A stretch of DNA of 57,676 nt from an uncultured virus (IMG/VR IMGVR_UViG_3300035210_000191) (Duplodnaviria; Heunggongvirae; Uroviricota; Caudoviricetes), in IMG/VR virus record IMGVR_UViG_3300035210_000191. The stretch is one strand, 5' to 3'. Below are positions 12 through 54,145 of the stretch, one piece after another; position 1 is the first letter of the stretch, and every line of letters starts with the position of its first letter. The position numbers and the translations under genes are program-made. Under the pieces are notes generated by a model, which had not been told where the DNA came from, made no database searches, and saw nothing but the letters and a program-made list of their open reading frames with translations.

Positions 12-809
12 ATGGAAAATTTTAGAAATGCTGTTTCTGGGGCATTTGATACCAGAACAACAAAAACAACATTTTTTGAATATGAGCAATATCCTATGAT
101 GGACACGCAAGTTCATATTTTGTTTAAAAAACATAAAAACCCCGTTAATATAGATAAAACATTTTTAAGTTTTGCTATTTCGCCGGGACAACCATTTTTC
201 CATTCAATTTGTCTCAAAGATCTTGCTTTTATAGATAAGTTTAATCAAATGTTTCAAATGCATAAAACATCAAGAGAAGATTTCGTCTTTATCAATGACT
301 ATCTTCATTCTTTTCATAAAAATGATAATTTTTCAAAATTATTGATAATGAATGATCATATCAAATCTCATGAGTTTTATACTTTCAAAAAATTATATAT
401 GTTAGAAAAAGACGAGACTAAATATGGTGTAACATCTTGTGTTCACACGTCTTACAGAAGTGTTGCACAATATGAATTTATTAAAAACTTTTCAATAACC
501 CGTGATGGAGCAATAGCCCTGTTTCCAACTGTTCATTTTTTTAAGCATGTTAATCCATTTTCATTATATTTTAGCCTGTCTGATAAAAAGGTATATAAAC
601 TTCCAGAAAGTTTAGCTGGCTTAGTGACGTTGGAAGATATTGTAGAAGCCAGCACCCTTTTTACACATCATGACATTGATGTTTTTACAGATGAAATATT
701 GATGATGTATGTGTGTAATCTTCATAATGGAGTTTATCAAGAATTTTTAGACATACCACAAGAAAATATTTCTGATAAGATAGATTTATTACTAATGACC
801 ACTATTTAA
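12..809 (+). CDS. hypothetical protein with shared C-terminal M-x-x-I motif
   Basis: 265-aa ORF, GGAG RBS at 2-5, ends DLLLMTTI. Confidence 0.75.
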   Translation: MENFRNAVSGAFDTRTTKTTFFEYEQYPMMDTQVHILFKKHKNPVNIDKTFLSFAISPGQPFFHSICLKDLAFIDKFNQMFQMHKTSREDFVFINDYLHSFHKNDNFSKLLIMNDHIKSHEFYTFKKLYMLEKDETKYGVTSCVHTSYRSVAQYEFIKNFSITRDGAIALFPTVHFFKHVNPFSLYFSLSDKKVYKLPESLAGLVTLEDIVEASTLFTHHDIDVFTDEILMMYVCNLHNGVYQEFLDIPQENISDKIDLLLMTTI

Positions 810-820
810 AAATCGTTTAC

Positions 821-857
821 AAAAAAGGCATTCTAATTATCTTAGGTGCCTTTTTTT
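821..857. terminator. bidirectional intrinsic terminator between convergent genes
   Basis: A-tract-GGCA...TGCC-T-tract inverted repeat. Confidence 0.65.
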
Positions 858-871
858 ATTTATTTTAAATA

Positions 872-1207
872 TTATTTGACATTTTTCTCTTTGGAACGTT
901 GGTAATTCATCATTCTTTTTTCCATTTGATAATACCAATGTCTACGTGGATATTGAGCTTTCACTTCGAGCCATGACTTATTGAAAAAGAAATCTAGTGT
1001 TGCTTGTGGTGTCTCCAATGTTACATATTTTGAACTGATGGATATTGATGAACATCCAAGTTCACCACGACTGTCCACAATCAATCCGTTCATATTACGC
1101 AGACGTGTAATCGTTAACAATTCATCGTGCATGAAAAAATCGCTGGATTGTTTAAACTTTGTATAGTAATCATACAATGACCACACATACCTTAATACAT
1201 TTAACAT
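872..1207 (-). CDS. hypothetical protein
   Basis: 111-aa ORF with AGGAG RBS. Confidence 0.7.
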   Translation of the reverse strand: MLNVLRYVWSLYDYYTKFKQSSDFFMHDELLTITRLRNMNGLIVDSRGELGCSSISISSKYVTLETPQATLDFFFNKSWLEVKAQYPRRHWYYQMEKRMMNYQRSKEKNVK

Positions 1208-1232
1208 GGTTATCTCCTGTTCAGCAATGTGG

Positions 1233-1829
1233 TTAAATTCTTGCCATCTTTAATAATTCAAAAGCCTGATCATCAAACTGGCTCATGTGCGTAATTTCTA
1301 AGCCAATGCTTTCCCTCAGCATTTCTTGAAATTGTGGATAGATTACGTTTTCATATAACTCTTTATAACTGTAAGCTGTATTTTTCATACCTAATGTACA
1401 TTCCATCATTGGCCCAATCGATATTTCTTTACAAAGGTTGGAATAAGATATGACTTCTTTTTGTTTAATTTCAGGTTCTTTTTTAATTTTCCTTTCTATA
1501 TAGGTCGCTTCAAAACCTTTGCTGAAAACATTAAAACCATAGTCTTTAGGTGTATACAAAAAGTAATCAAAATGAGCGTATATATTAAAAATTTCGATAA
1601 TTTTTTCTAAATATTCGTCGTTTTCATCTTCAAAAGCAATGTTAAAAAAGCTTTTGGCGGTGTGTTTATTGATGATAAAAAGACCTTTGTGTAATCTAAT
1701 ATAGGGTATGTCATTAAAATCAATAAGGACACCTTCCGGTGTACAATTTAATTCACCCGGATTTTTTATTTCTAGAAATTTTCTACTTTTTTCTTTTATT
1801 TTATCAAGTAGCTCTTCTTTGTTTAACAT
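1233..1829 (-). CDS. hypothetical protein with C-terminal M-x-x-I motif
   Basis: ORF 1233..1850, likely start MLNKEE; ends ELLKMARI. Confidence 0.7.
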   Translation of the reverse strand: MLNKEELLDKIKEKSRKFLEIKNPGELNCTPEGVLIDFNDIPYIRLHKGLFIINKHTAKSFFNIAFEDENDEYLEKIIEIFNIYAHFDYFLYTPKDYGFNVFSKGFEATYIERKIKKEPEIKQKEVISYSNLCKEISIGPMMECTLGMKNTAYSYKELYENVIYPQFQEMLRESIGLEITHMSQFDDQAFELLKMARI

Positions 1830-1992
1830 GCTCTCATTCCGCCTTTTCAATAATTATCAATAAATTTAAAGGAAATTATAACAAAATATGACAATGAGGT
1901 AAAGCATTATTTAAACACTATTTAAGTTGATTTACTGTTATGTTTTTGATACACTAGCAACCTACTTAAATGATGACTAAGGAAGCTTACAG

Positions 1993-3227: not shown

Positions 3228-3926
3228 ATGACAGAAAAAACTAACATAGATATTATTAAAGATCATCTTTTAAACAGTCTTTCAGAATTAGCAGAAGAAG
3301 ATTTTTTGTATTTTGAACGCTCATTTGAATTGGGAGAATACGTTAACAAATATGCGTTCCCTACATTGAAATATTATTTTGATGAATCCAATTGTCATAT
3401 TTATCTTATTGGACTTAATGATCGTAGATATTTCATTGGTTACTACAGTGATGATAGAGGTCAATTATCAGTTTATGTTCCGATTGGATTCATCAACAGA
3501 AGCACAATTAACACTATCAATCTATCTGGGGTAACGCCAAGTGCTGAGACGATGATTTTGAAAAATCTTATTTATTTAGATCGATCATCTTATTATTTCA
3601 AAGGTTTTGAGGTTTTAAATTCGTCGTCGTTCAAATTTTCAGATAAAAATGCTTTACGGTTTGGTTCTCATTTTGTTAAGTATCAAAGTACGTTTGTTAT
3701 CTCAAAAAAAGATCAAACTGTGTGTTTTCAACATAACCAGATGCTGTATGCTAAAACGTTAACAGGTGAACGTTATGTCAGCTCTATAATGAGTCGTAGT
3801 TTTAGAACTGAACTGGACAAATATTTAAGCTCTTTTACTTTGTCTTTGTTTGACAAAATGTTTAATAAATTGAACAAAAAGGAACTTTTACTTTTAAAGA
3901 TGTATAATATTGGAAACACTTTATAG
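3228..3926 (+). CDS. hypothetical protein with near-terminal M-x-x-I motif
   Basis: 232 aa, RBS AAGGAG; ends KKELLLLKMYNIGNTL. Confidence 0.75.
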   Translation: MTEKTNIDIIKDHLLNSLSELAEEDFLYFERSFELGEYVNKYAFPTLKYYFDESNCHIYLIGLNDRRYFIGYYSDDRGQLSVYVPIGFINRSTINTINLSGVTPSAETMILKNLIYLDRSSYYFKGFEVLNSSSFKFSDKNALRFGSHFVKYQSTFVISKKDQTVCFQHNQMLYAKTLTGERYVSSIMSRSFRTELDKYLSSFTLSLFDKMFNKLNKKELLLLKMYNIGNTL

Positions 3927-9744: not shown

Positions 9745-10377
9745 TCAATGAATTTTTAACATATTTAAGACTTCAATAACGCCATCGTCTACTACATCAA
9801 CAGAATACGTCAACGTTTTTGAAAGCTGTTCATTATAGGCGGATAACATAGGCTTGATAATTGAATTCAAATCTTGATAGTAAACGCCTAGCTCTGTCCA
9901 AACATCATGAGAAACTTTAAAATCCTTAGTCACATCATAATAAGCTTGAATTGGCTCAACATACAGTTTAATTGAAAAAACGGTGGTTGTTCCATCTTCT
10001 GCATAATCAATAAATTTTATACCATAAAAACTAACGTCAGTGGCCGTGAGGTAGTCTTTTTTCATACCCACTTTATGTCTTTCTTCCCATGTCATATGCC
10101 TAAAATCGAAATTTAATCCAATCGCTTCCAAATAAGGTTTTATCACTTTGTTTAAATCCTCAGCCACAGTATAAAAACCTAATTCAGAATAATTTTTAAA
10201 TACGGCTGGCAAAATTATTTGTGGATTTTTAATATTGTGTAGCAAATAGTAATTTGTATCATCTAAAAAATCTAAACTTTGATCATACGAGTTACTATTT
10301 TCAATTTCAAAATTATCAATCTTAGATAATGCAGTCAATTTTTCAAGAAAAAAATCTTTTTGCTCATGTATGTTCAT
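9745..10377 (-). CDS. hypothetical protein with C-terminal M-x-x-I motif
   Basis: 210 aa; ends EVLNMLKIH. Confidence 0.75.
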   Translation of the reverse strand: MNIHEQKDFFLEKLTALSKIDNFEIENSNSYDQSLDFLDDTNYYLLHNIKNPQIILPAVFKNYSELGFYTVAEDLNKVIKPYLEAIGLNFDFRHMTWEERHKVGMKKDYLTATDVSFYGIKFIDYAEDGTTTVFSIKLYVEPIQAYYDVTKDFKVSHDVWTELGVYYQDLNSIIKPMLSAYNEQLSKTLTYSVDVVDDGVIEVLNMLKIH

Positions 10378-12042: not shown

Positions 12043-12813
12043 ATGACTGATAAGTCAAAGCATATGCGAATGTTATTGGATATCGTTAATCGAGACTATA
12101 TCAATTGCGAAAAAACAATTTATCAAAATGATAAACAATGTGAACAGATAGATATTTGTGATAATGAATCTATTGATTATGGTCACATTAAGTTAGTTTT
12201 AAGTCCTTTTAATATCAATGGAGATCTTGAATTATTTATTGAAGATGAGCATTGCAATCATATTGATTCTTTTAGATCTAGACACTTATTTTATCATAAT
12301 AGTCACTTTGATTCTTTTTTTAAAGAAAATTTTACTGTCTATGATAATGAAGCATCTATTGAAATGGTGAAGGAATACGTCAGTAAAATATCGAATTTTA
12401 TTCATGAATTTCCTTCCCAAAATATAGGAAAAAGATCAATTGAACATAGAAGTATAATAAATAACATTGATCATTGTTTAAAATTGTTTACTGTTCGTAA
12501 GTTTATTAGTTCTACTGAAATACAAGTTGAATACAATATTTGTTTGTCTTTAAGAGGAACTAAATGGAATTCTCATTATTCTAATCATGTGTTCGGAATC
12601 TCAATTGAAAATGGCATTATTACGAAAGATTTTAAGAACAAAAACACTCCTTTAAGTTATTTTTCAATTGATGACTTGGTATATAAAACATTTTTTACAC
12701 TTCATCCAAGGATGGATACTTTTGAAAACAATACGTTTAATGGAACAAAACCTCCATTTACAAAAGACGTGTATGATTCTATGATTATTGTGGATGAGAT
12801 GCATATAATTTGA
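12043..12813 (+). CDS. hypothetical protein with C-terminal M-x-x-I motif
   Basis: 256 aa; ends IIVDEMHII. Confidence 0.75.
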   Translation: MTDKSKHMRMLLDIVNRDYINCEKTIYQNDKQCEQIDICDNESIDYGHIKLVLSPFNINGDLELFIEDEHCNHIDSFRSRHLFYHNSHFDSFFKENFTVYDNEASIEMVKEYVSKISNFIHEFPSQNIGKRSIEHRSIINNIDHCLKLFTVRKFISSTEIQVEYNICLSLRGTKWNSHYSNHVFGISIENGIITKDFKNKNTPLSYFSIDDLVYKTFFTLHPRMDTFENNTFNGTKPPFTKDVYDSMIIVDEMHII

Positions 12814-20496: not shown

Positions 20497-21204
20497 ATGA
20501 TAATTGTCGCAATTAATAGTTTATTAACAAAATGCGAAACCTTTTTAAATAAGGTATTCGATAATAGAACTGACACTTTTATCAGTCGTTCTGATGTTCT
20601 ATTTAGTTTTATTTTTTCACCATTTGTGATACTGTTATTGTTTAACTTTATCAATATTTTTAAAAGTTTAACAATAACAGTCATTAAGGACGATGACATT
20701 TTGTGGAAATATATGTTTTATTTTCCTTTAACTTCCTTTCTATTCTTATTGTTTGTTTATTCGCTTTATATGTATAAACATCGTTCTATTTTCATGTATT
20801 CACTGGGAAGTCCTGTTTTAAAACTATTGGGATTTTTGATATTTGTTTTTTTTGTTGCAATGTCTTATGAAAAAATACATGTTTGTTTTGCCACTGTTCT
20901 GTTAGTAATTAATGCTTTTTCTATTGTTTCTTTGATTGGCAGTAATCTAATTGTTTCAGAAAATATAAGAAATTCAAAAGACAACAATCAATTTAAAATC
21001 ACATTCATTAGTCTTGAAGGTGAACAACGTGGATTTACATTTTTTAAAAATATTAATATTTTATATTATTCTACTCATATACTTTTAGAAAAATATAAAA
21101 TAAGTTACAAGGATGTTTTTCTTTTCGAACATCAATTTAGTAAGAAGCTATATGATTTTAATGATGACGAATTAAAGATCCTTAAAATGTATGCAATTTA
21201 TTAA
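20497..21204 (+). CDS. multi-pass membrane protein with C-terminal M-x-x-I motif
   Basis: about 4 hydrophobic segments; paralog of 21237; ends KILKMYAIY. Confidence 0.7.
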   Translation: MIIVAINSLLTKCETFLNKVFDNRTDTFISRSDVLFSFIFSPFVILLLFNFINIFKSLTITVIKDDDILWKYMFYFPLTSFLFLLFVYSLYMYKHRSIFMYSLGSPVLKLLGFLIFVFFVAMSYEKIHVCFATVLLVINAFSIVSLIGSNLIVSENIRNSKDNNQFKITFISLEGEQRGFTFFKNINILYYSTHILLEKYKISYKDVFLFEHQFSKKLYDFNDDELKILKMYAIY

Positions 21205-23455: not shown

Positions 23456-23561
23456 ATTCACCTCTTTTAATGCCTAATTTTAACAGAAATGACTATATAT
23501 ATCAAGTTAAAATATCGTTGCAAAAATGTTTATCATCTGTTATGTCCATATAGACAACTCC

Positions 23562-32359: not shown

Positions 32360-32426
32360 ATAGTGCCTCCTATTTTATTGTTTATAAGTATAGAGCAAAT
32401 AAAAAGCCAGTGTTAACTGACACATC

Positions 32427-33146
32427 TTACTTTAGTTTCAATTTTGCCAACATGCACTCATTATCTTCCCAGTCAGCCTCATTTTTATATTTAAATCCTA
32501 AATCTTCCAAAATTTTAATCATGTCTCGAATACTTATCTTTTTAGTTGCACTGGTTTCTTTTAACTGATAATGGTATTCGTCCATTTTGTCTAGATAGGT
32601 TGGTATCATATCCATTAAAATATCACTGACGTATAAATCTGGATCGGAGTTAAAGCAATCCATAAATATGAAACAAAATGATTCTAGCTCACCACTGGCG
32701 TTTGTAATCATCAGCGTGTCTAACCCATTCGTAACATAATTGAGTTCGTTATAATACGTTTCATCAGGAAAAAAGAAGGTGAATTGATTAGCGACTTGAA
32801 ATTTTTGTTCTTTTGTTAATGCATTGGTCGCTTTAATAAAGTCATCCATTGAATCACCATTATTATAGTTTTCTAATGATTTGATACCTTTTTTTAGAAA
32901 TTTTTTGGCATCAAACTCTTTGGTTTCAGATTTAGACTTCTCAACTACATCAGCTTCATTTACCACGGAGAGATGACCTAAGATATCTTCTTTGATTAGA
33001 CACGTTTCATCATTAAATTTAAAAACACGAATAACATTGCCATTGACATCTTTATATTTTCGATCTCGCTTGATGTTGACAGTAGATGTCAATCCAAAGC
33101 GATCTTTAATGTAATTTTTGCAATCTTCTGTAGTAATTTTACTCAT
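32427..33146 (-). CDS. MSK(I/V)-family acidic protein
   Basis: start MSKITTEDCK. Confidence 0.8.
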   Translation of the reverse strand: MSKITTEDCKNYIKDRFGLTSTVNIKRDRKYKDVNGNVIRVFKFNDETCLIKEDILGHLSVVNEADVVEKSKSETKEFDAKKFLKKGIKSLENYNNGDSMDDFIKATNALTKEQKFQVANQFTFFFPDETYYNELNYVTNGLDTLMITNASGELESFCFIFMDCFNSDPDLYVSDILMDMIPTYLDKMDEYHYQLKETSATKKISIRDMIKILEDLGFKYKNEADWEDNECMLAKLKLK

Positions 33147-33178
33147 ATTATTTTTCCTACTGGTTAGTGTATGGTTGG

Positions 33179-33898
33179 TTATTTTAAATTGAGGTGTTTG
33201 AGCATACAATCATCTTCGTCACCATAAAACTCAGGGCAACTTTTATATGAAAAACCAAGGCTATCAAATAATGTTATGACATCATTGATTGTCATGTCCT
33301 TATTTTGTTTATTGGGTGTCATTTCAAAAATATTTTCATCGACTTTTTCAAAAAACTTAGGGATGATAACTCTCACAATTTCATCAAGATAGAGTTCAGG
33401 ATCAGATTTTAAGCTGTTATGGAAGAAAATCCCATAACACTGTGTGCCATATTTTCCAGATCTAAACATGGGTGTATCTAGGCCGTTTGTGACAGAATCC
33501 ATATCGTTTTCGTAAACCAAAGGGAAGCAGTAGTAAAATTCGTTAGCTATTTTAACTTTGTCTTCTTTTGACAAACGTTCACCTTCTGCTATAAATTCGT
33601 CCATACTTTCAATCCCATCGTCTTCATCATCACTAAATTTTTTAAGATATTTTCTGAGGAATGCTTTGGCATTAAAGAGTTTTTCTTTTTGATCTATCAT
33701 GTCTTCACTGACCAGTGATAACTGACCTTGATTGTCTTCTTTAATAAGATAGATATCAGTCTCGTTTATTTTAAAAACACGAATGACATCGCCATTGGCA
33801 TCTTTATATTTTCTATCTCGTTTGATATTGACTGTTGTAGTTAAGCCAAAGTGTTGTTTAATGAAATTTTTGCAATCTTCTGTAGTAATTTTACTCAT
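33179..33898 (-). CDS. MSK(I/V)-family acidic protein
   Basis: GGAG RBS, start MSKITTEDCK. Confidence 0.8.
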   Translation of the reverse strand: MSKITTEDCKNFIKQHFGLTTTVNIKRDRKYKDANGDVIRVFKINETDIYLIKEDNQGQLSLVSEDMIDQKEKLFNAKAFLRKYLKKFSDDEDDGIESMDEFIAEGERLSKEDKVKIANEFYYCFPLVYENDMDSVTNGLDTPMFRSGKYGTQCYGIFFHNSLKSDPELYLDEIVRVIIPKFFEKVDENIFEMTPNKQNKDMTINDVITLFDSLGFSYKSCPEFYGDEDDCMLKHLNLK

Positions 33899-34023
33899 GT
33901 ATTGACTCCAATTTATCAACTATCATAGCATAAAACACCACTTTTTGTCAAAATTTAATTTTATTATTTTTGTTGATGAAATTTCTATTTTGTGTTATTA
34001 TTCAATATATTTTGGAGATTATT

Positions 34024-34818
34024 ATGATATTTAAAGACGTTGAACGAGAGCTGACTCAGCTTTTTTCTACCAAATTTCCAGACGTTAATGTTAAATTATC
34101 TAAAGTTGACTCTGATATTGATGATGCCATTATGTTTAAATCCTCTTTTGATGATGGAAATAAATTTATAGGTTTTAAAATTCGTGACAATTCTATTATG
34201 GAAATCAAAGCAAGTCATAGACATTTAGAAAATGCTCATAAATTATTTTCTCTTAATAAGGTTAAAGTGGATGCTTTTAATATCATTCCAGTCTTTTTTA
34301 ATCTCCTGACAACAAACTCTAATTTTAATAGGTCTTTTACATTCCTAAACAACATGAATCAAAAAAAAATATTTCGTTTCTATAAAAGTGGGATGAATTA
34401 CATATTGCCACATATCACAGAAGATCAAGGTTTTTTTCGATTAACAAGTATCTTGGCAGAGTCTTTTTGCCAATTTTATCTTGAAAATTCTTTTAAATTA
34501 TCTCGTAATGGTAAATTTTTACCCATTCCAATGATTCGAATTTTTGGAGAGCAAAACGATGAGCAAGTTTTTGCCTTTAATCTCTATGATCAACAAGTCT
34601 ACAAGGTAAAAAAGAAATTGTTCTACTTTGAAGATTTTTTTGAATCCGCTGAATTGTTTGATGTTAACTATCATGGTGATATTTTAGTTGATGAACACCT
34701 TGATCATTATGTTATCAATGGATTGATAGATGACAAAACTATTAGAGAATCACTTATTGTTCTTCCAAGAGATCAATTGAAGAATAAAATTGATTTAATC
34801 TCAATGTACCTTATTTGA
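34024..34818 (+). CDS. hypothetical protein, paralog of 35750
   Basis: shared YLEN.FK, VFAFN, YHGDI, IRESLIVLPRD; ends LISMYLI. Confidence 0.78.
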   Translation: MIFKDVERELTQLFSTKFPDVNVKLSKVDSDIDDAIMFKSSFDDGNKFIGFKIRDNSIMEIKASHRHLENAHKLFSLNKVKVDAFNIIPVFFNLLTTNSNFNRSFTFLNNMNQKKIFRFYKSGMNYILPHITEDQGFFRLTSILAESFCQFYLENSFKLSRNGKFLPIPMIRIFGEQNDEQVFAFNLYDQQVYKVKKKLFYFEDFFESAELFDVNYHGDILVDEHLDHYVINGLIDDKTIRESLIVLPRDQLKNKIDLISMYLI

Positions 34819-35749: not shown

Positions 35750-36535
35750 ATGAACGACGATAAGATTCCACAACCCATTGCTGACTTATTTGCTTCTCGT
35801 TATCCGAAAAGCAAATTTGAGTCCACATCTATCAATGATATTATCATTTTCAAATCGACATTTGATAAAGAAAAACAATTTGTTGACTTTATTTTTAAGA
35901 AAAATTCAATTACTACCATAAAAACCAATAATAAATACCTTCCAGAAGTTAAAAAGCTTTTGTCTATTAATAAGATGAAACGTAGTGACTTTAAGATTGT
36001 AGACGATTTTTTTACTCTCATAAATTCAAACAGCAATTTTGATAAAATTTTTTATATGGAGAACAAAATTCTTCCTACTGAAATTTGTTCGTTCAAACGT
36101 GACGGCACGTCTGCTTTTACATTACCTTTTATTGCGAACACACATTCTCGCACTTATCTTATCACTAAGATAAGCAAAAGTTATTTTATGTATTACTTAG
36201 AGAATCACTTTAAGATGACGAAAGATGGCACCATCTTAATTGTTCCTATAATCACCTTGTTTGAGCATCAGAAAAATGAGCATGTATTTGCCTTTAACAT
36301 TTATGATCAGACTATTCATCGCATTCGAAATGAAGAATTTTACTTTGAAGACTTATTTGAAAACAATGAGCCTTTCAATCCAGAATATCATGGTGATATT
36401 TTTGTCGATGAATATATTGATAACTACATTCTTAACACCCTTGACGATGATGACGAAATCAGAGAATCCCTTATTGTATTGCCAAGAGATCGTTTGAGCG
36501 AAAAAGTAGACATTCTTTCTATGTATCTGATCTAA
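35750..36535 (+). CDS. hypothetical protein, paralog of 34024
   Basis: GGAG RBS; ends ILSMYLI. Confidence 0.78.
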   Translation: MNDDKIPQPIADLFASRYPKSKFESTSINDIIIFKSTFDKEKQFVDFIFKKNSITTIKTNNKYLPEVKKLLSINKMKRSDFKIVDDFFTLINSNSNFDKIFYMENKILPTEICSFKRDGTSAFTLPFIANTHSRTYLITKISKSYFMYYLENHFKMTKDGTILIVPIITLFEHQKNEHVFAFNIYDQTIHRIRNEEFYFEDLFENNEPFNPEYHGDIFVDEYIDNYILNTLDDDDEIRESLIVLPRDRLSEKVDILSMYLI

Positions 36536-38792: not shown

Positions 38793-38796
38793 ACAT

Positions 38797-44250: not shown

Positions 44251-45141
44251 TCATATTTTTACCATTTCAACAAGCAAAAAATATTCTTTCAATTCATTAA
44301 CCGACAATGACTCTAATTCTTTTTTACTGATCTTTAAACGATTTGATAATACATTTATAATTTGATTTGAAAATAATTTATTGAAGTATTGTCGTATATC
44401 AGTTTCATTTAACTCATAGTATTTTTCTTGATTAATATGTTGTGTGGTTAACGTTTTATCATCTGTATAGATATACATTTTATTGCTTCTTCCAACAGGC
44501 GTGACACAACTAATTTTTTTGTTGTCAAAGTAAGGTAACCTAATTTTGAAGTAAGGATGCATTGTATTGTCTGAATGCACTAAATAAATGAGATCAATAT
44601 TAATGTAAGATTTCTTAAAGTGTTTATCTTTGAAACCTTCACCTTTTTGCAGGATATTATTAAAATGAATCATAGCAACATTTTTGCTTGTAGTGCTAAT
44701 ATTCAATGTATGAAAATTAGCATTCAGGTGATTTTCTATATTTTCAGAATACTCTTTTTTATCAGTTATTTTTATAATTTCAGTTTTTGTGCCTTCATCA
44801 ATAAACCAATCAATCACATTGATAATTTTATTAAAATCTGGCTGATACATTGTTTCAATGATTGAACCAATATTGATGTATTCTTCTTTCATCATGTATG
44901 GAGTATTAAAAACTAACCTACCTAGATAATTTTTATCCAGATCCTTTATTTTTTCTTGTGGCTCGAATATGACTTGGGCAGTGACATAAGAATCGGGTGA
45001 TGTAGATGTATAAACATTTCTCAGAATATAGTTGAACCTGTCTTTAATTAGAGATTCTTTCACATCAGTAAAAGTAAAATGTTTACTAAATGTTTTAAAT
45101 AAGTTATTAACCGCTCTATGATTTGAAAAACTAGTAGACAT
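44251..45141 (-). CDS. tandem-array paralog (FNNILQKG/PYFK family) 1 of 9
   Basis: family motifs; ends LVEMVKI. Confidence 0.8.
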   Translation of the reverse strand: MSTSFSNHRAVNNLFKTFSKHFTFTDVKESLIKDRFNYILRNVYTSTSPDSYVTAQVIFEPQEKIKDLDKNYLGRLVFNTPYMMKEEYINIGSIIETMYQPDFNKIINVIDWFIDEGTKTEIIKITDKKEYSENIENHLNANFHTLNISTTSKNVAMIHFNNILQKGEGFKDKHFKKSYINIDLIYLVHSDNTMHPYFKIRLPYFDNKKISCVTPVGRSNKMYIYTDDKTLTTQHINQEKYYELNETDIRQYFNKLFSNQIINVLSNRLKISKKELESLSVNELKEYFLLVEMVKI

Positions 45142-45176: not shown

Positions 45177-45863
45177 TTAAATTTTTTGCATTTCGTCAAC
45201 GAGTTGAAAATCTTTGATGATTTTTTGAGTGCCCTTGTAATCTTTAACAACGGTTTCAAGATCTATATTGTATTTTTTGATAGTATAATCATCTTCGAAA
45301 ATAAAATAGATAACTCGTTCTCTGACATTGGTGCAGTAGTCTGGGGAATTCCACAGTCTGCTGTTTAATTTTTCAATAACCGTTATATCAGCTACATTAT
45401 ATTTTTTTGTGGCTGTGTTTGCAGAACTAGTAATTTCAATATAAACATCTTCACTGCTTTTTACTTGGGTTAAATTAGCGTCATTAAAGGCACATTCAAA
45501 AATAAAAGTGAGTTCTTCAATGTCTGCAATTTCTTCATATTGACGAGCATAGTCAGCGATTGCATTGTTATCAATATCAAAATTAATATCGGTGAATTTG
45601 AATGCAATTAGCATGGTAAACGCATACACATAGGTTGCTTGTTCAAAACGAGATAGACCTTGTGATTGATCATAAAAAGAGTCATTGAAATAGTGACCAA
45701 ATGCTGAATTTTTGAAGTTGCTTATAAAATTCTTACACTTGACCATCTTGGTCTTATTGTCAGCAGAGATGTCCAGTGCTTTCCAATCTAACTCAGGGGT
45801 TTCTTTTTCGACCACAAAAAATCCATTTGATGTTAACGTAGGTGATTGTGCTATGGTTGTCAT
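45177..45863 (-). CDS. hypothetical protein with C-terminal M-x-x-I motif
   Basis: not an array paralog but ends LVDEMQKI. Confidence 0.75.
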   Translation of the reverse strand: MTTIAQSPTLTSNGFFVVEKETPELDWKALDISADNKTKMVKCKNFISNFKNSAFGHYFNDSFYDQSQGLSRFEQATYVYAFTMLIAFKFTDINFDIDNNAIADYARQYEEIADIEELTFIFECAFNDANLTQVKSSEDVYIEITSSANTATKKYNVADITVIEKLNSRLWNSPDYCTNVRERVIYFIFEDDYTIKKYNIDLETVVKDYKGTQKIIKDFQLVDEMQKI

Positions 45864-46390: not shown

Positions 46391-47296
46391 TCAGATTTTA
46401 ATCATTTCTACCAGCACAAAATATTCTTTAAGTTCATCAATAGTGAGTTCGTTAACATCTGATTTTCTCATTTTTAATGTTTCACAAATAACATTTTTAG
46501 CTTCTGCCCTAAATTGATTTTCGAAAAAATCTGTCAATGATTGACTATCAACATCTATGCTATTCAACTTTCTCAAAAAATCATTTTTCAAGGGGACTTC
46601 ACTGGCAGCAAAATACATTTTTTTAGGATTATTTATTGGAATTATACACATTATTTTATTATGTGCTGAATAGGGGAATTTTATTTTAAAATATGGCTTA
46701 ATAGTTTCATCAGGCTCTACAAGATGAATTACTTCGATATTAATATAAGACTTCTTGAAATAATTCTTTTGAGCACCCCGGCCTCGTTGAAGAATATTAT
46801 TAAAGCTTACTGTTGCAATATTTTTGTCTTTGAATTTTAATTGATTGAAATAACCATCATTGTAGAAATGAGTGTTCATGTGTGGGATATATTTTTTCAT
46901 TTCGACACTGTTAATCAAACCAGACTCAATACCTTTGTTAATGAAAATATCGACAATATTGAGAGCTTTCTCAAAATCTGGTTTATATTTATCTTGAAGA
47001 AAATCAGCTATATTATTAGCTTTTTGACTAAGAACAGTTCGCAATGTCGGGCCATAAGACATAACACTTATTTCTGGGTAGTAGTGTAGTTTTTCTTGGC
47101 TGCTTTTAGTTTTATTTTCAAAATATATTTGCATAGTCCATTGATCATTTTCTGTTGTTGCTTTATAAATTGTAGCTGCAATATCATTATCAGAAAATCT
47201 TTGTTGTTCTACATTGTGTTGATTGAATACAAATAAAGGTGAAATGGATTTCACAAAATGATTAACAGATGACTTATTGAGTAGTGTTTTAAACAT
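46391..47296 (-). CDS. tandem-array paralog 2 of 9
   Basis: family motifs; start at MFK after GGAG. Confidence 0.8.
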   Translation of the reverse strand: MFKTLLNKSSVNHFVKSISPLFVFNQHNVEQQRFSDNDIAATIYKATTENDQWTMQIYFENKTKSSQEKLHYYPEISVMSYGPTLRTVLSQKANNIADFLQDKYKPDFEKALNIVDIFINKGIESGLINSVEMKKYIPHMNTHFYNDGYFNQLKFKDKNIATVSFNNILQRGRGAQKNYFKKSYINIEVIHLVEPDETIKPYFKIKFPYSAHNKIMCIIPINNPKKMYFAASEVPLKNDFLRKLNSIDVDSQSLTDFFENQFRAEAKNVICETLKMRKSDVNELTIDELKEYFVLVEMIKI

Positions 47297-47367
47297 GAAA
47301 GACTCCACAATTATGGCTAATTAATGTAGTATTATACCATAAAGGACTTGGCTAAGTCCATATTTTG

Positions 47368-48291
47368 TTATATTTTAATCATCTCTACCAGCATAAAATA
47401 ATCTTTTAATTCATCTGCAGATAAATTATCTAATTCAGTTTTCTTAATTTTCAATGTTTTAGAAATTGTTGTTTTTATTTCATTTTCGATTTCACCCTTA
47501 AAATATTCAGCTAACTTGTCTTTTTTTAAAGGCATTGAAATTATTTTATCAATAGGTGTTATTCTCAACGACTCAGAATCCCCCACCAAATAAAGTATAT
47601 CACCACCTGCTAGTGGAAGAACATAAGTGTTTTTATTCGTTGCTGATGTAGGTAGTTTTATTTGAAAATAGATATTTACTTCATTCATTGAGTCTACTAA
47701 ATAAACTACATTTATACATATAAACGATTTTTTAAAATGTGTTCCGTTTTTTCCTGTTCCCTTTTGAAGCACATTATTAAATTTAATACTCGCATAGTTT
47801 TTATCCCATAGCTTTATTTGTCCATGATAATGATTGATATGCATATGAGAAATCATGTGTTTTTTATATTTTTTCACATCAACACTGTTAAACATGCCAG
47901 AATGAAGACCTTGTTCAATAAAAATATCAATAATCTCAATAACTCTGTCAAAATCAGGGGTATAAGTTGTTTGTAAAAATTCAGCAATCTCTTTGCTTTT
48001 TTGGAATCTCTCAGCAACAGATTCTCCATTGTAATGGGTCATCTTAGATTTCAGATCTTTTTCGAATGAAACATAGGGATAAAACTTCTTTCTAATCATG
48101 TTGTCTTTTTTTGGACCATAAAATTGTGTTATTAATTGCCAGCCTTCGTCAGCTTGTGCTATATATTTTGTAGATTCAGAATCATTAAAACCATCGTAAT
48201 ATTCATCTGTGTATTTTGAGTATTTAAACAACGGCTCAAATATTTTGAGTATGTTATTGGCCTCTTGATAATTCTTGTATGAGTTAAACAT
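47368..48291 (-). CDS. tandem-array paralog 3 of 9
   Basis: family motifs; ends LVEMIKI. Confidence 0.8.
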   Translation of the reverse strand: MFNSYKNYQEANNILKIFEPLFKYSKYTDEYYDGFNDSESTKYIAQADEGWQLITQFYGPKKDNMIRKKFYPYVSFEKDLKSKMTHYNGESVAERFQKSKEIAEFLQTTYTPDFDRVIEIIDIFIEQGLHSGMFNSVDVKKYKKHMISHMHINHYHGQIKLWDKNYASIKFNNVLQKGTGKNGTHFKKSFICINVVYLVDSMNEVNIYFQIKLPTSATNKNTYVLPLAGGDILYLVGDSESLRITPIDKIISMPLKKDKLAEYFKGEIENEIKTTISKTLKIKKTELDNLSADELKDYFMLVEMIKI

Positions 48292-48317
48292 AATATTCTC
48301 CAAAACGTTCCATTCAA

Positions 48318-49247
48318 TTAAATCTTCAGCATTTCAACGAGTACAAAATACTCTTTCAATTCTTCTGGTGTTATTCCATCCATATCTGACTTATTAATTT
48401 TCAGTGTTTTAGAAATAGATGTTTTCATTTCTTTGTAAAACTCTTTATCAAAAAAATCTTTTAACTCTGTTTCGTCCATTGAAATTGAAGGCAATGTATC
48501 AATGCATTCTCTTCTCAATTTGTCATCGTTTGCCATAAAATAGACAATAGCCTTTCCTGTTAATGGAATCACACAGGTTGCTTTTCGAGACTCTGAATAT
48601 GGTAATCTTATTTTGAAATAAGGGTGCATTGTGTTATCAGAGTGAGCTAGATAATCAATAGATACACTAATGTAGGATTTTTTGTAGTGAGTAGTGCCAC
48701 GATAACCAGAAACCCCTTTCTGCAGGATATTATTAAAAGTTACTGTACCAAAGTTATTGTCACCAATGGTAATAGTTCCAGAATAATGATTGGTGTTTAA
48801 ATGAGTTTTCATCACTTTTTTGTATTTTCTCACTGCAAGGCTTTTAAACAGTCCACATTCAATTCCTTTCTCAACAAAGAGTTTAAGAACAGTAAACATT
48901 CTATCAAAATCTGGATTGTAGGTCTTTTGTAAGAGTTCCACAATTTCTTTGCCTTTAAGTCTTCTGTCTTTGTGTTGATCTTCGTCAAAATTACGAACAC
49001 GATCTCCCAGTTGTTTAAATTTAATTTCTGGGTAGTAGGACTTTTGATCACTTTTTGAATTTTTTTTGTTATAAAACTCAATATACAATTCCCAATTATC
49101 ATCAGTTATTGCCGTATAGGTTGTGACAGAGATGTTGAAATCCGTATAGGGCTTGAACTCTTCATTAAATTTGACAAAATTGAACACTTTTGAAAACAGA
49201 GTGACCAGATGATTGGCTTCTGGGTGGTTCGGATAGGTATTAAACAT
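48318..49247 (-). CDS. tandem-array paralog 4 of 9
   Basis: family motifs; ends LVEMLKI. Confidence 0.8.
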   Translation of the reverse strand: MFNTYPNHPEANHLVTLFSKVFNFVKFNEEFKPYTDFNISVTTYTAITDDNWELYIEFYNKKNSKSDQKSYYPEIKFKQLGDRVRNFDEDQHKDRRLKGKEIVELLQKTYNPDFDRMFTVLKLFVEKGIECGLFKSLAVRKYKKVMKTHLNTNHYSGTITIGDNNFGTVTFNNILQKGVSGYRGTTHYKKSYISVSIDYLAHSDNTMHPYFKIRLPYSESRKATCVIPLTGKAIVYFMANDDKLRRECIDTLPSISMDETELKDFFDKEFYKEMKTSISKTLKINKSDMDGITPEELKEYFVLVEMLKI

Positions 49248-49362
49248 AATATACTCCAAAAATATTTAATAATTGTATCATAAATAAATATTGATTGCTA
49301 TTTTTTTTGCAATAAAAAAAGACCTTTCTTAAGGTCTTTTATCGGACTTCATGAAAAGTCAG

Positions 49363-50304
49363 TTAAAACTTTACCATTTCTATTAGAATGAAATGGCTTT
49401 TCAATTCATCATCGGTCATTTTAACTAATTCAGTTCTTTTTATTTTCAGGGTTTTAGAAATGACATTTATTATTTCTTTTTTAAAGTTATCTCTAAAGAA
49501 TAATTCTAAATAAGCATTGTCAGTTGGGTGTTCTTTAAGGTTGTCAATATAGTCTTCTTTCAAATGACTGTCTTCACTGACAAAATACATTTTTGAACAA
49601 TCAAAAGAAAGAATGCAGTGTATTTTTTTGTGTGATGAATAGGGTAATTTAATTTTGAAGTATGGGTTAATTTTATTATCTTTACTAATGAGATACAAGA
49701 AATCTATACTTAAATGAGATTTTTTAAATTTCGTTTCATTTGCTCTTAATGTTTGCAGCACATTATTAAAAGTTATTTTTGCAGCGACTCTGCTGTTAAA
49801 AAACAACCTATTGTAACCATTGTAGGTGTTTTCATACCTGTAAAATTGCGTGCTAACATCTCCATTATGTGGAATTACTTTCACACTATTATAGATACCT
49901 GTGTTAATACCTTGTTGAAGATAGATTTCAATTATCTCCATCGCTCTTTTAAAGTCAGGTTTATATATTTTTTGAAAGTGCTCCATTATTTTTTCTGCTT
50001 GTAGCTTATTAGCGATTTCTTCATCAGGTGTTGCTGGTCTTTTAACACCTTTGTAATCAGAATGGTCTTGTTTTCTATTTTTTTCAAATTCTACAACAGG
50101 GTAATAGTATTTCGAATCAAGACCTTTGGCTTTATCTGTTTCAAACGTTGCTGTAATACTCCAATTATCATCAGTAGTTGCCACATAGGCTATTGAGTCA
50201 TACCACTTATGTTTAGTTTCATCGAAGTCTACAATATTTAATACAGGTTTAAATAATTTAACCAATTGATTGATTTCTTCATGATTATGGTGTTTTTCAA
50301 ACAA
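49363..50304 (-). CDS. tandem-array paralog 5 of 9
   Basis: probable TTG start after GGAG; ends LIEMVKF. Confidence 0.78.
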   Translation of the reverse strand: MFEKHHNHEEINQLVKLFKPVLNIVDFDETKHKWYDSIAYVATTDDNWSITATFETDKAKGLDSKYYYPVVEFEKNRKQDHSDYKGVKRPATPDEEIANKLQAEKIMEHFQKIYKPDFKRAMEIIEIYLQQGINTGIYNSVKVIPHNGDVSTQFYRYENTYNGYNRLFFNSRVAAKITFNNVLQTLRANETKFKKSHLSIDFLYLISKDNKINPYFKIKLPYSSHKKIHCILSFDCSKMYFVSEDSHLKEDYIDNLKEHPTDNAYLELFFRDNFKKEIINVISKTLKIKRTELVKMTDDELKSHFILIEMVKF

Positions 50305-50388
50305 GGGATTCTCCAAATTATTAATATAAATATCATAACATTAAAAACAACAAATACCATTGTATACGGATAATTTGATAGACTATTT

Positions 50389-51294
50389 TTACAACTCCAT
50401 CATCTCAACCAGAGTAAAATAGTCTTTTAATTCCTCGCTGGTCAATCCGTCTAACTCTTTTTCAGTAATTTTAAGGGTTTTAGAAATAATGTATACCATT
50501 TCATCTTTAAATTGATTTTTAAAAAATGATTTTAGAGAAGCAGGATCGGATGAGAACTTCATTACCTGATTAAAATAACCTTCTTTAAAAACGTTGTCTG
50601 CGTTGGTAAAATAAATCGTTGATTCGCCAGACAATGGAATGACACACGTCACTTTACGTTCAGTAGAATAAGGAATTCTAAGGACAAAATATGGTTTCAT
50701 TTTATTATCGTCACTGACTATATGCATAATTTTTACACTAATAGTTGCCTTTTTAAAAGCCGAGCTGTTTTTTCCTGAACCCTTTTTAAGAACATTGTTA
50801 AATGTTATATTTGCGATATTTTTTTCACAAAATCTCAAGTTTTTATAATAATCATCCACAATAAAGTGAGAACTCATACTTGGAGTGTATTTTTTCATCT
50901 CAACAGAGTGAAATAAACCCGATTTAACACCTTCGTCTATAAACAGTTGAATGACAGTTTTCACTTTCTCAAAATCAGGTTTATATACTTTTTCAAATTG
51001 TTCAACAATTTTTTTACATGTATTCTTTTTTTCAAACGTCATATAATTGTTTTTCAATTTTTTAAAGGTTATTTCTGGGCAAAAATGTTTGTGATTTTGA
51101 TTCGCTAAGAATCTGTTATGGAAAGAAACAATTAGACTCCAATCATCACTATTTGTGGCTTCATATACTGACTCACCGATATCAGTTTGATACTTTTTCT
51201 TGTTATCTTCTTTAAAACTAGAAAACACAAATAATGGTGACAATTTTTCAACAAGATCGTTTACTTCTGTATAGTTGGGCATTTCTGAAAACAT
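50389..51294 (-). CDS. tandem-array paralog 6 of 9
   Basis: family motifs; ends LVEMMEL. Confidence 0.8.
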   Translation of the reverse strand: MFSEMPNYTEVNDLVEKLSPLFVFSSFKEDNKKKYQTDIGESVYEATNSDDWSLIVSFHNRFLANQNHKHFCPEITFKKLKNNYMTFEKKNTCKKIVEQFEKVYKPDFEKVKTVIQLFIDEGVKSGLFHSVEMKKYTPSMSSHFIVDDYYKNLRFCEKNIANITFNNVLKKGSGKNSSAFKKATISVKIMHIVSDDNKMKPYFVLRIPYSTERKVTCVIPLSGESTIYFTNADNVFKEGYFNQVMKFSSDPASLKSFFKNQFKDEMVYIISKTLKITEKELDGLTSEELKDYFTLVEMMEL

Positions 51295-51327
51295 AATAAT
51301 CTCCGGTGGTGAATTATTTCAATAATT

Positions 51328-52236
51328 TTAAATCTTAACCATTTCGACAAGAATAAAGTACTCTTTCAATTCATCATTTGATAAACCAGTTAATTCAGAC
51401 TTCTTAATTTTTAATGCACCCACAATCACGTTCTTGACTTCATTTTGTAGTTCTTTTTCAAAGAAGTCTGATAATGATTTGTCATCCATTGAAACTTTTT
51501 CATTCAGGTTGTCCACATATTTTTCTTTTAACACGTTATCTGTTTCGGCTATATACATTTTAGAGCTTCTGCTCAATGGAATGATACAAGTCACTTTCTT
51601 TGTTGCTGAATAAGGTAGTCGGATTTTAAAGTAAGGCTTTAATTCATTATCTGAGCTGACCAAATAAATGATTTCTATATTGATGTAAGCTTTCGTGAAT
51701 GAACGACCTAAAGAACAATTATTTTTTTGAAGCACTTTATTTAACATGACAGTCGCATAGTTAGTGCCATTAAATGATATCTTCTGATAATACTTGTGCA
51801 TACCAAAGTAGTTACTGAGATGTTGCGTTTCATCTTTTAATTTCACATGATTAAACATACCAATATCAATACCTTTTTTTACAAAAATATCAATAAGGTT
51901 ACGAACTTGATCAAAATCAGGGGCATAGTTATTTTGAAATAGTTCAGTGAGTTCAGCCACCTTGTCTAGTTTTATGGCAGTCAGATAATCTGATACAGTG
52001 CGTTCAAACCTAATTTCAGGATAATAATGTTTTTGATCGTGTTTGCTTCGAAAACGGTTATTGAATGATACAACCAGTTTCCAATTATCATCAGTGCTGG
52101 CACTGTAAATAGTGGAGCCAATATCTCGCTCATAGCTTTTATGATTCTCTTCATGAAAGGTTGTGAAATTAAATACTGATGAAACCTGTTCTACCAGTTT
52201 ATTAACATCCTCACAATTCTTATATTTTTCAAACAT
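51328..52236 (-). CDS. tandem-array paralog 7 of 9
   Basis: family motifs; ends LVEMVKI. Confidence 0.8.
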   Translation of the reverse strand: MFEKYKNCEDVNKLVEQVSSVFNFTTFHEENHKSYERDIGSTIYSASTDDNWKLVVSFNNRFRSKHDQKHYYPEIRFERTVSDYLTAIKLDKVAELTELFQNNYAPDFDQVRNLIDIFVKKGIDIGMFNHVKLKDETQHLSNYFGMHKYYQKISFNGTNYATVMLNKVLQKNNCSLGRSFTKAYINIEIIYLVSSDNELKPYFKIRLPYSATKKVTCIIPLSRSSKMYIAETDNVLKEKYVDNLNEKVSMDDKSLSDFFEKELQNEVKNVIVGALKIKKSELTGLSNDELKEYFILVEMVKI

Positions 52237-52276
52237 AATTGGCTCCAAATAATTACCTAATTATAGCATACTTTCA

Positions 52277-53191
52277 TTAATATTGCACCATATCAATCAG
52301 TGTATAATATTGTTTTAATTCATCCATTGATAAAACTCCTACTTCCTTTTTATCTAAATTAAGCTTTTTAGCAATGCTAATTCTCATTTCATTTTGAAAA
52401 CACACTTTTAAGTAATCTTTAAAATCTTTTTCATTATTAGAGATAGCTGTTAATGTATCAATGTATTTATTTTTCCACAATGCATCTTTTTCAAAAAGAT
52501 AAAGTTCATTTTTATTTTCAAAAGACATCAAACAAGTCAGTTTCTTATCTGCATTGTAAGGCAGCGTTATTTTGAAATAAGGATGAAGCGTTTCATCAGA
52601 ATGGACTAAATACACAATTTCCATTTTCAATAGGGATTTTTTGTAATGAGAATTTTGATATCCCTGCCCTTGCTGAAGAACTTTGTTGTGAATAATCATC
52701 ATGACTTTTTTCTCAATAAAGCTTAATGTGCCGTGACGGTGACTATCAATAGTTAGATGACTAGTCATTTGAGGTGAATAGCATAACTCTTCGTTATTTA
52801 TGATAAGACACGATTCAATACCTTGTTCGACAAACCATTTGATAATTGTCATAGGAAGACTAAAATCAGGGTTATACTTTTCGTGTATTCTTTCACTCAG
52901 GGATTCTGCAAAATCGTAAAGTGCATAATTTCTGACGTTATTAAAATCTTTGTTAGTAACTGATATCTCTGCTTTATATTGTTTTTTAGCAGTCTTTTCT
53001 TTTGTGTTGCTTCGAAAGCGAATCAGAAAATTCCAGTCATTATCAATCGTGGTTGCTTTATAATCAGTACATCCAATGTCACGATTCATATTGAATCCAT
53101 TTTCGACATTAAGACTTTTAAATTGATAAAAGTCTTTAAATTGTTCTAAAAAGTGATAAGCTTCTTTGCTATTGGGATATTTTTCAAACAT
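52277..53191 (-). CDS. tandem-array paralog 8 of 9
   Basis: family motifs; ends LIDMVQY. Confidence 0.8.
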   Translation of the reverse strand: MFEKYPNSKEAYHFLEQFKDFYQFKSLNVENGFNMNRDIGCTDYKATTIDNDWNFLIRFRSNTKEKTAKKQYKAEISVTNKDFNNVRNYALYDFAESLSERIHEKYNPDFSLPMTIIKWFVEQGIESCLIINNEELCYSPQMTSHLTIDSHRHGTLSFIEKKVMMIIHNKVLQQGQGYQNSHYKKSLLKMEIVYLVHSDETLHPYFKITLPYNADKKLTCLMSFENKNELYLFEKDALWKNKYIDTLTAISNNEKDFKDYLKVCFQNEMRISIAKKLNLDKKEVGVLSMDELKQYYTLIDMVQY

Positions 53192-53227
53192 AGATAACTC
53201 CAAATAATTATTGATTACGATAAAAGT

Positions 53228-54145
53228 TTAAATGTTTACCATTTCAACAAGCACAAAATATTCTTTCAATTCATTAATGGTTAAGTCTTTCAAATCTGTT
53301 TTACTAATTTTCAAGCGAGTAGAAATTGTATTTTTGATTTGCCTCTCAAAGAGTTGTGTGAACAGGTCTTTGAGCTTACATTCAGTCAATGCTTCTGGTG
53401 TTTGTTGGTCAACGTGGTATTTATCCAAATGACCATCATCCAAAAAGAAATACACTTTATCTCCCAACATAGAGAGAACACAACTGATTTTCTTATTTTC
53501 AAAATACGGCAACCGAAGTTTAAAATAAGGGTGCATTGTATTATCAGAATGCACCAAGTAGATAAAATCTACATTGATGTAAGATTTCTTAAAATGTTTT
53601 GACTGGATACCTTCGCCTTTTTGAAGGACATTATTAAAATATACATCGGCCACGTTTTGATCTGTAATATGAATTTTATTGTCATAATAATGAGCTAAAA
53701 TATGTGATTCCATACTTTTTTTGTAGTATTTTTTATCCACTACGTTAATAACGCCTGCTTGGGTGCCTACATCAATGAACCAATCCATAATTTCAGTAAT
53801 TCTATCAAAATTAGGCGTATACATTGTTTCTAACATGCGAACAATCGTTTGAGCGTCATTTCTAATTTTATCAGAGTTGAACACTTGAACTTCATTGTCA
53901 ACAAAAACGAGTTTGGCGATCTTATGTTTCCGTTGTGTTTGATTTTTATGTGTTTCGAGTGGGTTCATGAAGATGACTTCAAGATCCCTTTGACCTGCTT
54001 GTGAAGTGGCTTCATACACAGTTTTAAAGACATAACCATGCCTGTCAGCGTAGTTTGCTTCTTTGAAATTACTGAATTTAAAATCATTTTCGAACGACTC
54101 CAAAAGAGCATTAACTTCAAGATGATTGGGATAGATTTCAAACAT
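53228..54145 (-). CDS. tandem-array paralog 9 of 9
   Basis: family motifs; ends LVEMVNI. Confidence 0.8.
   Translation of the reverse strand: MFEIYPNHLEVNALLESFENDFKFSNFKEANYADRHGYVFKTVYEATSQAGQRDLEVIFMNPLETHKNQTQRKHKIAKLVFVDNEVQVFNSDKIRNDAQTIVRMLETMYTPNFDRITEIMDWFIDVGTQAGVINVVDKKYYKKSMESHILAHYYDNKIHITDQNVADVYFNNVLQKGEGIQSKHFKKSYINVDFIYLVHSDNTMHPYFKLRLPYFENKKISCVLSMLGDKVYFFLDDGHLDKYHVDQQTPEALTECKLKDLFTQLFERQIKNTISTRLKISKTDLKDLTINELKEYFVLVEMVNI

Follow-up and report, generated by a model that had tools for sequence, protein, structure and literature searches.

A stop-locked C-terminal methionine motif marks a large class of proteins in a putative very large phage-like element

Why should some two dozen proteins that do not visibly resemble one another all end in the same few residues? 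The question is raised by a 57,676-nucleotide stretch of DNA from an uncultured virus of the Caudoviricetes (IMG/VR record IMGVR_UViG_3300035210_000191), which at its full length is termed the window in what follows. An original prediction, made from the sequence alone, listed 23 window proteins with a C-terminal hydrophobic-x-M-x-x-hydrophobic motif and proposed that a modular signal or docking helix had been attached to unrelated protein bodies, defining a large hidden class. We call the proteins with this motif carriers, and number their residues backward from the C-terminus, the last residue being −1. The carriers are probably best read as a new, very large superfamily of orphan open reading frames (ORFans) with a frozen C-terminal helix, a reading suggested by the two families whose folds were predicted.

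The motif was counted in 73 non-overlapping open reading frames (ORFs) of the window, the remainder of 79 translated ORFs after six were removed: 2029–2250 (−) and 11419–11691 (−) overlap better ORFs, those at 37990, 38551 and 38803 overlap tRNA genes, and the one at 57035 runs off the window. The exact pattern [LIVMF]xxMxx[LIVMFY]-stop occurs in 18 of the 73, namely ORFs 12, 1233, 12043, 21956, 22646, 23562, 33970, 35750 and 45177 together with nine paralogs (44251 and those within 46391–54157). Four more ORFs have it one to four residues before the stop codon (3228 by four residues; 9745, 20497 and 21237 by one each), and ORF 29227 has alanine in place of the methionine at −4, as do its orthologs. 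All 23 listed C-termini are present as written: 18 exact, four offset and one alanine variant. The internal rate of the same 7-mer in the 73 ORFs predicts 0.24 C-terminal matches, and shuffled proteins averaged 0.17 over 200 trials, never exceeding 2. Methionine stands at −4 in 24.7% of window ORFs, compared with 2.7% methionine overall, and the pattern ends 0, 1, 2, 3 and 4 residues from the C-terminus in 18, 3, 1, 2 and 1 cases, with each further offset giving 0–1. Paralog inflation was removed by clustering the bodies (phmmer on proteins minus their last 25 amino acids); counted once per cluster, the motif is found in 7 of 51 window clusters versus 0.17 expected (binomial P = 4e-10). Enrichment of the C-terminal motif far beyond chance is confirmed, over both background and shuffled controls, and a limited literature search returned no description of this motif.

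The motif is a lineage trait. Searching with the array family described below found a sole relative in IMG/VR, a record of 437,043 bp (here G001) whose region at approximately 235–273 kb is syntenic with the window. It was read in 22 pieces, yielding 532 ORFs of at least 70 amino acids with an ATG start. The exact motif ends 68 of these, versus 1.38 expected, and methionine is at −4 in 102 of the 532 (19.2%), versus a background of 2.2%; by body cluster, the motif is found in 58 of 473. The pattern ends one to four residues before the stop in a further 4, 2, 2 and 1 ORFs, so that across the two records the counts at the stop itself, 18 and 68, stand against 0–5 at each of the other offsets as far as 29. 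Carriers occur throughout G001, at 3–15 per 40 kb and mostly on the + strand, and they are only mildly clustered (26 adjacent pairs versus 16.9 expected). Three further syntenic metagenome loci have methionine at −4 in 6 of 25, 7 of 27 and 7 of 24 ORFs. Xanthomonas phage XacN1, taken as a control, shows no enrichment (15 of 527 ORFs, 2.8%, versus a background of 2.1%), and three other huge-phage loci, found through their tyrosyl-tRNA synthetase, gave 0 of 29, 0 of 28 and 0 of 33. A hidden Markov model (HMM) of the short tail proved too weak in HMMER, with 18 matches at E<0.01, and a 16-position scoring matrix was used instead; trained on G001 alone, it places 14 of the 73 window C-termini above threshold and none of the 527 from XacN1.

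The constraint is on the protein, not on the DNA. In the 68 G001 carriers with the exact motif, the final 12 codons hold their information at codon positions 1 and 2, with third positions at background, as are the 30 bases 3′ of the stop; 11 different codons are used at −7 and 13 at −1, and TAA, TGA and TAG all serve as stops. A terminator, a promoter of the next gene or an RNA motif that merely happens to be translated would account for the fixed position at the stop codon and for nothing else, and in view of the silent third positions and downstream bases, the varied codons and the three stops, such a nucleotide-level signal has a negligible chance of being the explanation. A k-mer search upstream of the genes for a class-specific promoter found nothing beyond p = 0.001 before correction.

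Logos were drawn from 120 tails and again from 63 tails, one per cluster. They show L/I/V at −7, E/K at −5, an ‘invariant’ M at −4 and I/Y/L at −1; hydrophobic residues at −13, −9/−10, −6 and −3; and acidic or polar residues at −15, −12 and −11, where D and E are enriched, so the acidic stretch that had been noticed before the motif is real. Weaker signals lie upstream (K at −24, D/E at −22, L at −21 and −18, S/T at −17). The C-terminal module thus spans approximately 25–30 residues: a short helix, a Ser/Thr cap, an acidic turn and then φ-x-x-φ-φ-x-M-x-x-φ-COOH, where φ is hydrophobic. In both AlphaFold2 models described below the motif is the last, 15-residue helix, following a short helix and a turn. 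With ideal-helix geometry, −7, −4 and −1 would share a face with −5, −8, −11 and −15, which are polar or acidic, and the generic hydrophobic positions −3, −6, −9 and −13 would lie on the opposite face. Database homologs of the two largest window families retain the methionine at −4 in 26 of 26 full-length sequences for one (F1) and in 25 of 25 and 18 of 19 for the other (A1), the exception ending ...MLQVVMF.

Are the bodies in front of this tail related? By sequence they appear not to be. The 125 candidate carriers (25 from the window and 100 from G001, with approximately seven doubtful calls among them) fall into 95 phmmer clusters, and of eleven seed families HMM iteration joined only two. 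A profile of the A1 family (alignment A2, 38 sequences) searched against 1.84 billion representatives gave 31 matches, every one from A1 itself, and none linked it to another carrier family; against PDB sequences its best match had E = 0.27, and the corresponding F1 profile (alignment A4, 29 sequences) had none. No genes of the region are less conserved than the carriers: 10 of the 23 in the window lack a BLAST match in G001, and neighbouring enzymes are 50–86% identical. Their length is narrow, with a median of 243 amino acids and quartiles of 211 and 282.

Nor do known domains occur among them. Pfam was run on 504 G001 ORFs and 74 window ORFs, with 46 short ORFs falling outside the scan. None of the 23 window carriers matches above the Pfam cut-off (two matches are sub-threshold, at E = 0.0012 and 0.0033), and none matches PHROGs, NCBIfam or PADLOC; the claim that no recognisable enzyme carries the motif holds for Pfam in the window. 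In G001 none of 99 carriers has a Pfam match at E≤1e-3, the 100th scanned candidate, a metallophosphatase with a doubtful off-end motif and the one Pfam match, having been left out. Among non-carriers of G001, 97 of 386 (55 of 104, 24 of 150 and 18 of 132; 25%) match Pfam at E≤1e-5, a difference with Fisher p = 2e-11. If a tag could move freely between proteins, some recognisable ones should bear it, and the finding of no carrier with a known domain disfavours such a tag. The only sign of modularity is the coexistence of soluble and membrane carriers: approximately ten have two to four predicted membrane segments in their first half (20497 and 21237 in the window, where the prediction of membrane proteins among the carriers is borne out by three to four segments, and eight in G001), such that the N-terminal half is not always the same.

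Structure prediction relates two of the families. A1 (nine genes) and F1 (ORFs 12, 33970 and 35750) together account for 12 of the 23 window carriers. AlphaFold2 modelled an A1 member (47368–48291) on alignment A2 with a predicted local distance difference test score (pLDDT) of 88.8 and a predicted template modelling score (pTM) of 0.87, and the F1 member 35750 on alignment A4 with pLDDT 89.0 and pTM 0.86. The motif helix is residues 292–306 of the former and 246–260 of the latter. The two models have 19 paired secondary-structure elements in identical order, with two or three small extras: an N-terminal helix, a four-stranded sheet, a helix pair, a sheet of seven to eight strands, then a short, a long and another short helix, and finally the tail helix. 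Foldseek found no clear match for either model in PDB or BFVD (TM-score approximately 0.2). In VIA-align the top-50 lists of both models contain nine identical PDB chains at corresponding ranges: the N-terminal part matches the MotA C-terminal domain (5jlt, 6k4y) and the YdcD double-wing (8wj5), the C-terminal part matches CyaY/frataxin (4jpd) and Med17C (4h62), and the remaining shared chains are 4r80, 2fpn, 5wi2 and 4cfe. The double-wing (T4 MotA-like) match has Z 4.3–5.7 and a root-mean-square deviation of 3.3–6.3 Å over 80–99 residues for the two models, a range common for unrelated chains. These models are a strong hint, not proof, that A1 and F1 share one architecture, and to that extent the bodies of these two families look like one diverged family, contrary to the proposal of unrelated bodies. 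Chou-Fasman propensity profiles across all carriers did not resolve architectures. A complex prediction for A1 and F1, pairing tail to tail, scored 0.20 and 0.01, below the mark of 0.32, which counts neither for nor against binding.

With somewhat less than even confidence, we favour the explanation that the carriers are one very large, lineage-specific, fast-evolving superfamily whose constant C-terminal helix docks all of its members on a common partner. The bodies would have diverged beyond detection by HMM and profile–profile comparison as the residues at −4, −7, −5 and −1 stayed fixed; the variable body would recognise something different in each paralog, the constant helix would be the handle that docks all paralogs onto the same hub, and in some members membrane segments would have replaced the N-terminal half. 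The same residues are frozen in >100 otherwise unrecognisable paralogs, from which we infer one external partner: a self-packed helix could drift together with its own pocket in each paralog, so a one-to-many contact fits better. A docking function is likely but unproven, and docking is the most attractive reading of the shared helix. A bolder form of the idea, which we hold as possible though on the unlikely side, is a universal handle by which >100 diversified receptor-like proteins per genome plug into one phage or host hub (a protease, clamp or transcription machinery), giving a bacterial virus an F-box-like set of exchangeable substrate adaptors with which to take over its host or defend itself against it.

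Several observations weigh against the superfamily with a common partner. No partner was found in the 437 kb and 58 kb available of a genome that may be approximately 1.9 Mb, and plain common descent would likewise keep the distance to the stop codon constant. Comparison of alignments A2 and A4 by hhalign gave a probability of 0.1%, and 45 pairwise profile–profile comparisons of shallower family profiles were all <3%, so common descent is not shown by sequence; in this respect the original view of the bodies as unrelated stands. The N-terminal halves of the multi-pass membrane carriers cannot have the soluble fold. The families folded are two of approximately 11 window sequence groups, and they were compared by element order and shared weak matches; the best VIA-align scores against 48,161 chains, Z 5.7 and 5.9, are within the stated noise range of the tool. 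Finally, the tail helix has a pLDDT of approximately 81–86 in both models, which fits a self-packed helix as well as a docking one.

That last value, the identical element order of A1 and F1, the hydrophobic character of most of the helix circumference and the lack of a known domain in any carrier would all be expected of a pure family remnant, that is, one diverged superfamily whose last helix is the slowest-evolving element of the core, packed on its own body with no partner and at an inherited distance from the stop. We consider this rather unlikely: methionine is usually easily replaced in protein cores, yet here it is invariant across clusters without other detectable similarity, while neighbouring hydrophobic positions vary freely among L/I/V/F/Y, and carriers with membrane anchors retain the tail although they lack the soluble N-terminal half. 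The converse possibility, a transferable C-terminal tag on truly unrelated proteins serving in virion packaging or ejection, degradation or secretion, has precedent in the C-terminal targeting peptides of HK97-like capsids, encapsulins and microcompartments. It would explain why body similarity is undetectable among 95 clusters, why carriers are both soluble and multi-pass membrane proteins, and why the end position is so strict in G001, although common descent gives the same strictness. We judge it improbable, given that known domains are present in 0/99 and 0/23 carriers but in a quarter of other ORFs, that the two folded families share an architecture, and that carrier length is narrow. Multi-pass membrane proteins would be implausible capsid cargo, making virion packaging of those carriers unlikely, and Pfam recognised no secretion ATPase of type I or type IV among the 504 scanned ORFs of G001, itself a fragment record. 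Of the original proposal, then, the large hidden class with a shared C-terminal helix is upheld, hub binding or protease targeting may apply, and the freely modular tag on unrelated families is not supported where it could be tried. More specific still would be a sliding-clamp-binding tail of the T4 type, with a gp45-like or beta clamp as the hub on which carriers ride. The DNA polymerase gp43 of phage RB69 ends ...KKASLFDMFDF and fits all scored positions (L at −7, F at −6, D at −5, M at −4, F at −3, F at −1); this C-terminal peptide reportedly binds the RB69 clamp, as described by Shamoo and Steitz in 1999, and G001 encodes T4-like RegB, Rnl1 and a polynucleotide kinase-phosphatase domain. 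This is, however, a single example matched to a seven-residue pattern; no gp45, DnaN or PCNA family appears among the Pfam matches of the scanned ORFs of G001 and the window, from an incomplete genome, and the carriers are ORFans, some of them membrane proteins, rather than replication or transcription proteins. We regard the clamp tail as very improbable.

The likeness to known systems is partial in each case. Bacillus phage G is described (PMC7824862) with a zinc-ribbon family of approximately 35 copies, a lineage-specific expansion in a giant phage that resembles the present case in comprising tens of fast-diverging small paralogs of no known function, partly in tandem, with one short conserved element. 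Compared with what is described there, the likely carriers here are more pervasive, approximately 95 in 437 kb (17–25% of ORFs), occupying the whole record rather than one array, and what is conserved is a helix at the very C-terminus, with an invariant methionine and no Pfam or PHROG model. A similar working principle, in which variable bodies present a short constant helical handle to one hub, is used by poxvirus ankyrin proteins with a C-terminal F-box-like (PRANC) end and by cellular F-box proteins. The likeness is to the proposed principle only, with no sequence or fold relation and with a bacterial host here, and we know of no Skp1-like hub in bacteria. The clamp tail of T4-family gp43 shares the extreme C-terminal position and the spacing L-φ-acidic-M-φ-x-φ-COOH, but in T4-like phages such a tail is found on a handful of replication and transcription proteins, and here on approximately 100 ORFans with no clamp gene found in the DNA read. 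The HK97 protease tail, encapsulin cargo-loading peptides and microcompartment encapsulation helices are short terminal peptides or amphipathic helices that direct proteins to one shell; they sit on enzymes of known and different folds and lack an invariant methionine, whereas carriers have no known fold and some are membrane proteins. Legionella and Coxiella Dot/Icm effectors number at least 100 ORFans per genome and have a Glu-rich C-terminal signal with a hydrophobic residue near −3/−4. Those signals are a loose compositional bias, unlike the position-locked motif of this phage-like element, and no type IV secretion genes were found in the record read.

The window carriers occur on both strands, as had been stated. 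The largest group is A1, an array of eight head-to-tail paralogs at 46391..54157 (−), all ending L-[VI]-[ED]-M-x-x-[IFLY] and located at 46391–47308, 47368–48303, 48318–49259, 49363–50316, 50389–51294, 51328–52248, 52277–53203 and 53228–54157; a detached copy of this family lies at 44251..45141 (−) and ends ...YFLLVEMVKI. F1 is a BLAST group of three + strand genes: 12..809, ending ...DKIDLLLMTTI; 33970..34818, ending ...KIDLISMYLI, whose likely true start is the ATG at 34024; and 35750..36535, the folded member. Two paralogous pairs are found. One comprises the membrane carriers, each with one extra residue after the motif, at 20497..21204 (+; three predicted segments; ...LKILKMYAI-Y) and 21237..21947 (+; four predicted segments; ...LEIMTMYAF-N), and the other comprises 22646..23461 (−; ...YIALDEMIKI) and 23562..24380 (−; ...YISLHRMTNI).

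Four carriers are singletons. ORF 1233..1850 (−) ends ...FELLKMARI, with the tail at its low-coordinate end, and has no match in Pfam, PHROG, NCBIfam or PADLOC; 12043..12813 (+) ends ...IIVDEMHII; 21956..22579 (−) ends ...YGLLTEMVKI and has a matrix score of 16.7; and 45177..45863 (−) ends ...FQLVDEMQKI, with an ortholog on a 1.86-Mb contig ending ...LLVEAMNKI and no usable neighbour in the ESM Atlas. Extra residues follow the motif in 3228..3926 (+; four residues; ...LLLLKMYNI-GNTL) and in 9745..10377 (−; one residue; ...IEVLNMLKI-H), the body of which clusters with two G001 carriers. The alanine variant, 29227..29796 (+), ends ...NLLMLSALTL, and its orthologs end ...LLMLSALTF and ...LLIFSALSI. 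Three further paralogs on the − strand (31619, 32427 and 33179, within 31619..33919) have a motif-like stretch, ..LTIKDMIAL.., 27–28 residues before the C-terminus. Two of them have matrix scores of 14.7 and 7.5, and the family was also aligned (alignment A5); their membership among the carriers is uncertain, and the stretch may be a chance match. These three proteins themselves end C-M-L-x-K-L-x-L-K, and their whole length is shared with the N-terminal half of a 523-amino-acid protein, ORF 24386 (24386–25957).

In our reading the window belongs to a very large, phage-like bacterial element; a G-rich, Shine-Dalgarno-like stretch 5′ of genes in G001 points to the bacterial host. Its G+C content is approximately 31%. 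A cluster of six tRNA genes in the order Ser(TGA)-Tyr-Tyr-Ser-Tyr-Ser lies at 38093–38884, and a Ser/Tyr tRNA cluster is found at the syntenic place in G001; a bacterial-type tyrosyl-tRNA synthetase gene (8389–9663) lies approximately 29 kb from the window cluster. Other window proteins recognised by Pfam are of the MYG1, NUDIX, MazG-like, HAD and S49 peptidase families, and phage-family matches among the non-carriers include a head maturation protease (phrog_53), a NinI-like phosphatase and others. G001 encodes several aminoacyl-tRNA synthetases, GatA/GatB, DnaK, NAD-salvage enzymes and TnpB (by Pfam), and its longest ORF is 778 amino acids. The contigs on which homologs lie are 437 kb, 520 kb, 604 kb and 1.86 Mb long, with lengths as high as 1.92 Mb given by the protein index. 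The replicon may be a phage well beyond the size of any yet described, or another kind of giant extrachromosomal element. No relatives were found among GTDB species genomes with the A1 alignment or ORF 43046 as query, and no deposited phage matched by megablast (17.7 kb) or tblastn (ORF 3954). No terminase or capsid family was recognised in the 437-kb fragment G001; the lack of matches to NCLDV (nucleocytoplasmic large DNA virus) capsid and Terminase_6N carries little weight in a fragment.

Among the 26 tRNA genes of G001 one has a CTA anticodon, which reads TAG, and ARAGORN assigns a four-base anticodon to another (L020 15947–16020 and L021 9162–9237). Stop-codon recoding as a source of false C-termini was rejected, as TAG or TGA readthrough hardly lengthens ORFs. 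G001 also contains 11 paralogs with DEDDh_C (DNA polymerase III epsilon-like C-terminal), none of which has the tail (e.g. L002 834–1829, L010 5445–7459, L022 13528–14487); a complete, bacterial-type MFS-HlyD-outer-membrane-factor (OEP) efflux operon with a MarR regulator (L007 13040–17622, −); and genes for a methyl-accepting chemotaxis protein, LysR and DoxX/nitroreductase. In the window, three small paralogs of 84, 83 and 96 amino acids (10908–11997) start M-x-x-x-C-C and end in a Cys/His cluster (..C-x-C-x-C-H......H); they match neither Pfam nor PHROG, and from these residues look like a small metal-binding family. Another three paralogs, at 18490–19251, 19652–20488 and 34886–35686, start MGG-x-[IV]-x-[LV]-[VL]-x-R and have no family match, with an ortholog in G001 61% identical. 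A 141-amino-acid ORF (13790–14215) has a C-terminal Gly/Ser/Asp run (..GGGGGGGDSGGGGDGGGGGD) and a weak PHROG match, phrog_14209. Several small ORFs of the three huge-phage loci found through tyrosyl-tRNA synthetase end ...L-I-L-F-S, ...Y-L-I-F-S or ...Y-N-L-F-S (L046 2289–2915, 11505–11879 and 14952–15446; L047; L048 11472–11834), and may, judging by these ends, have a different shared C-terminal tail of their own.

Were the carriers indeed one superfamily with a shared docking helix, a single family would make up 17–25% of the genes in a lineage with contigs of up to 1.86 Mb, and much of the ‘dark matter’ of giant elements would be a single invention. The frozen tail would then be a direct experimental entry point to the family, and methionine at −4 with L/I/V at −7 would provide a simple sequence rule that picks out members missed by HMMs. 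Should there be a common hub, the carriers would give a virus of prokaryotes its own equivalent of F-box proteins and similar adaptor families.

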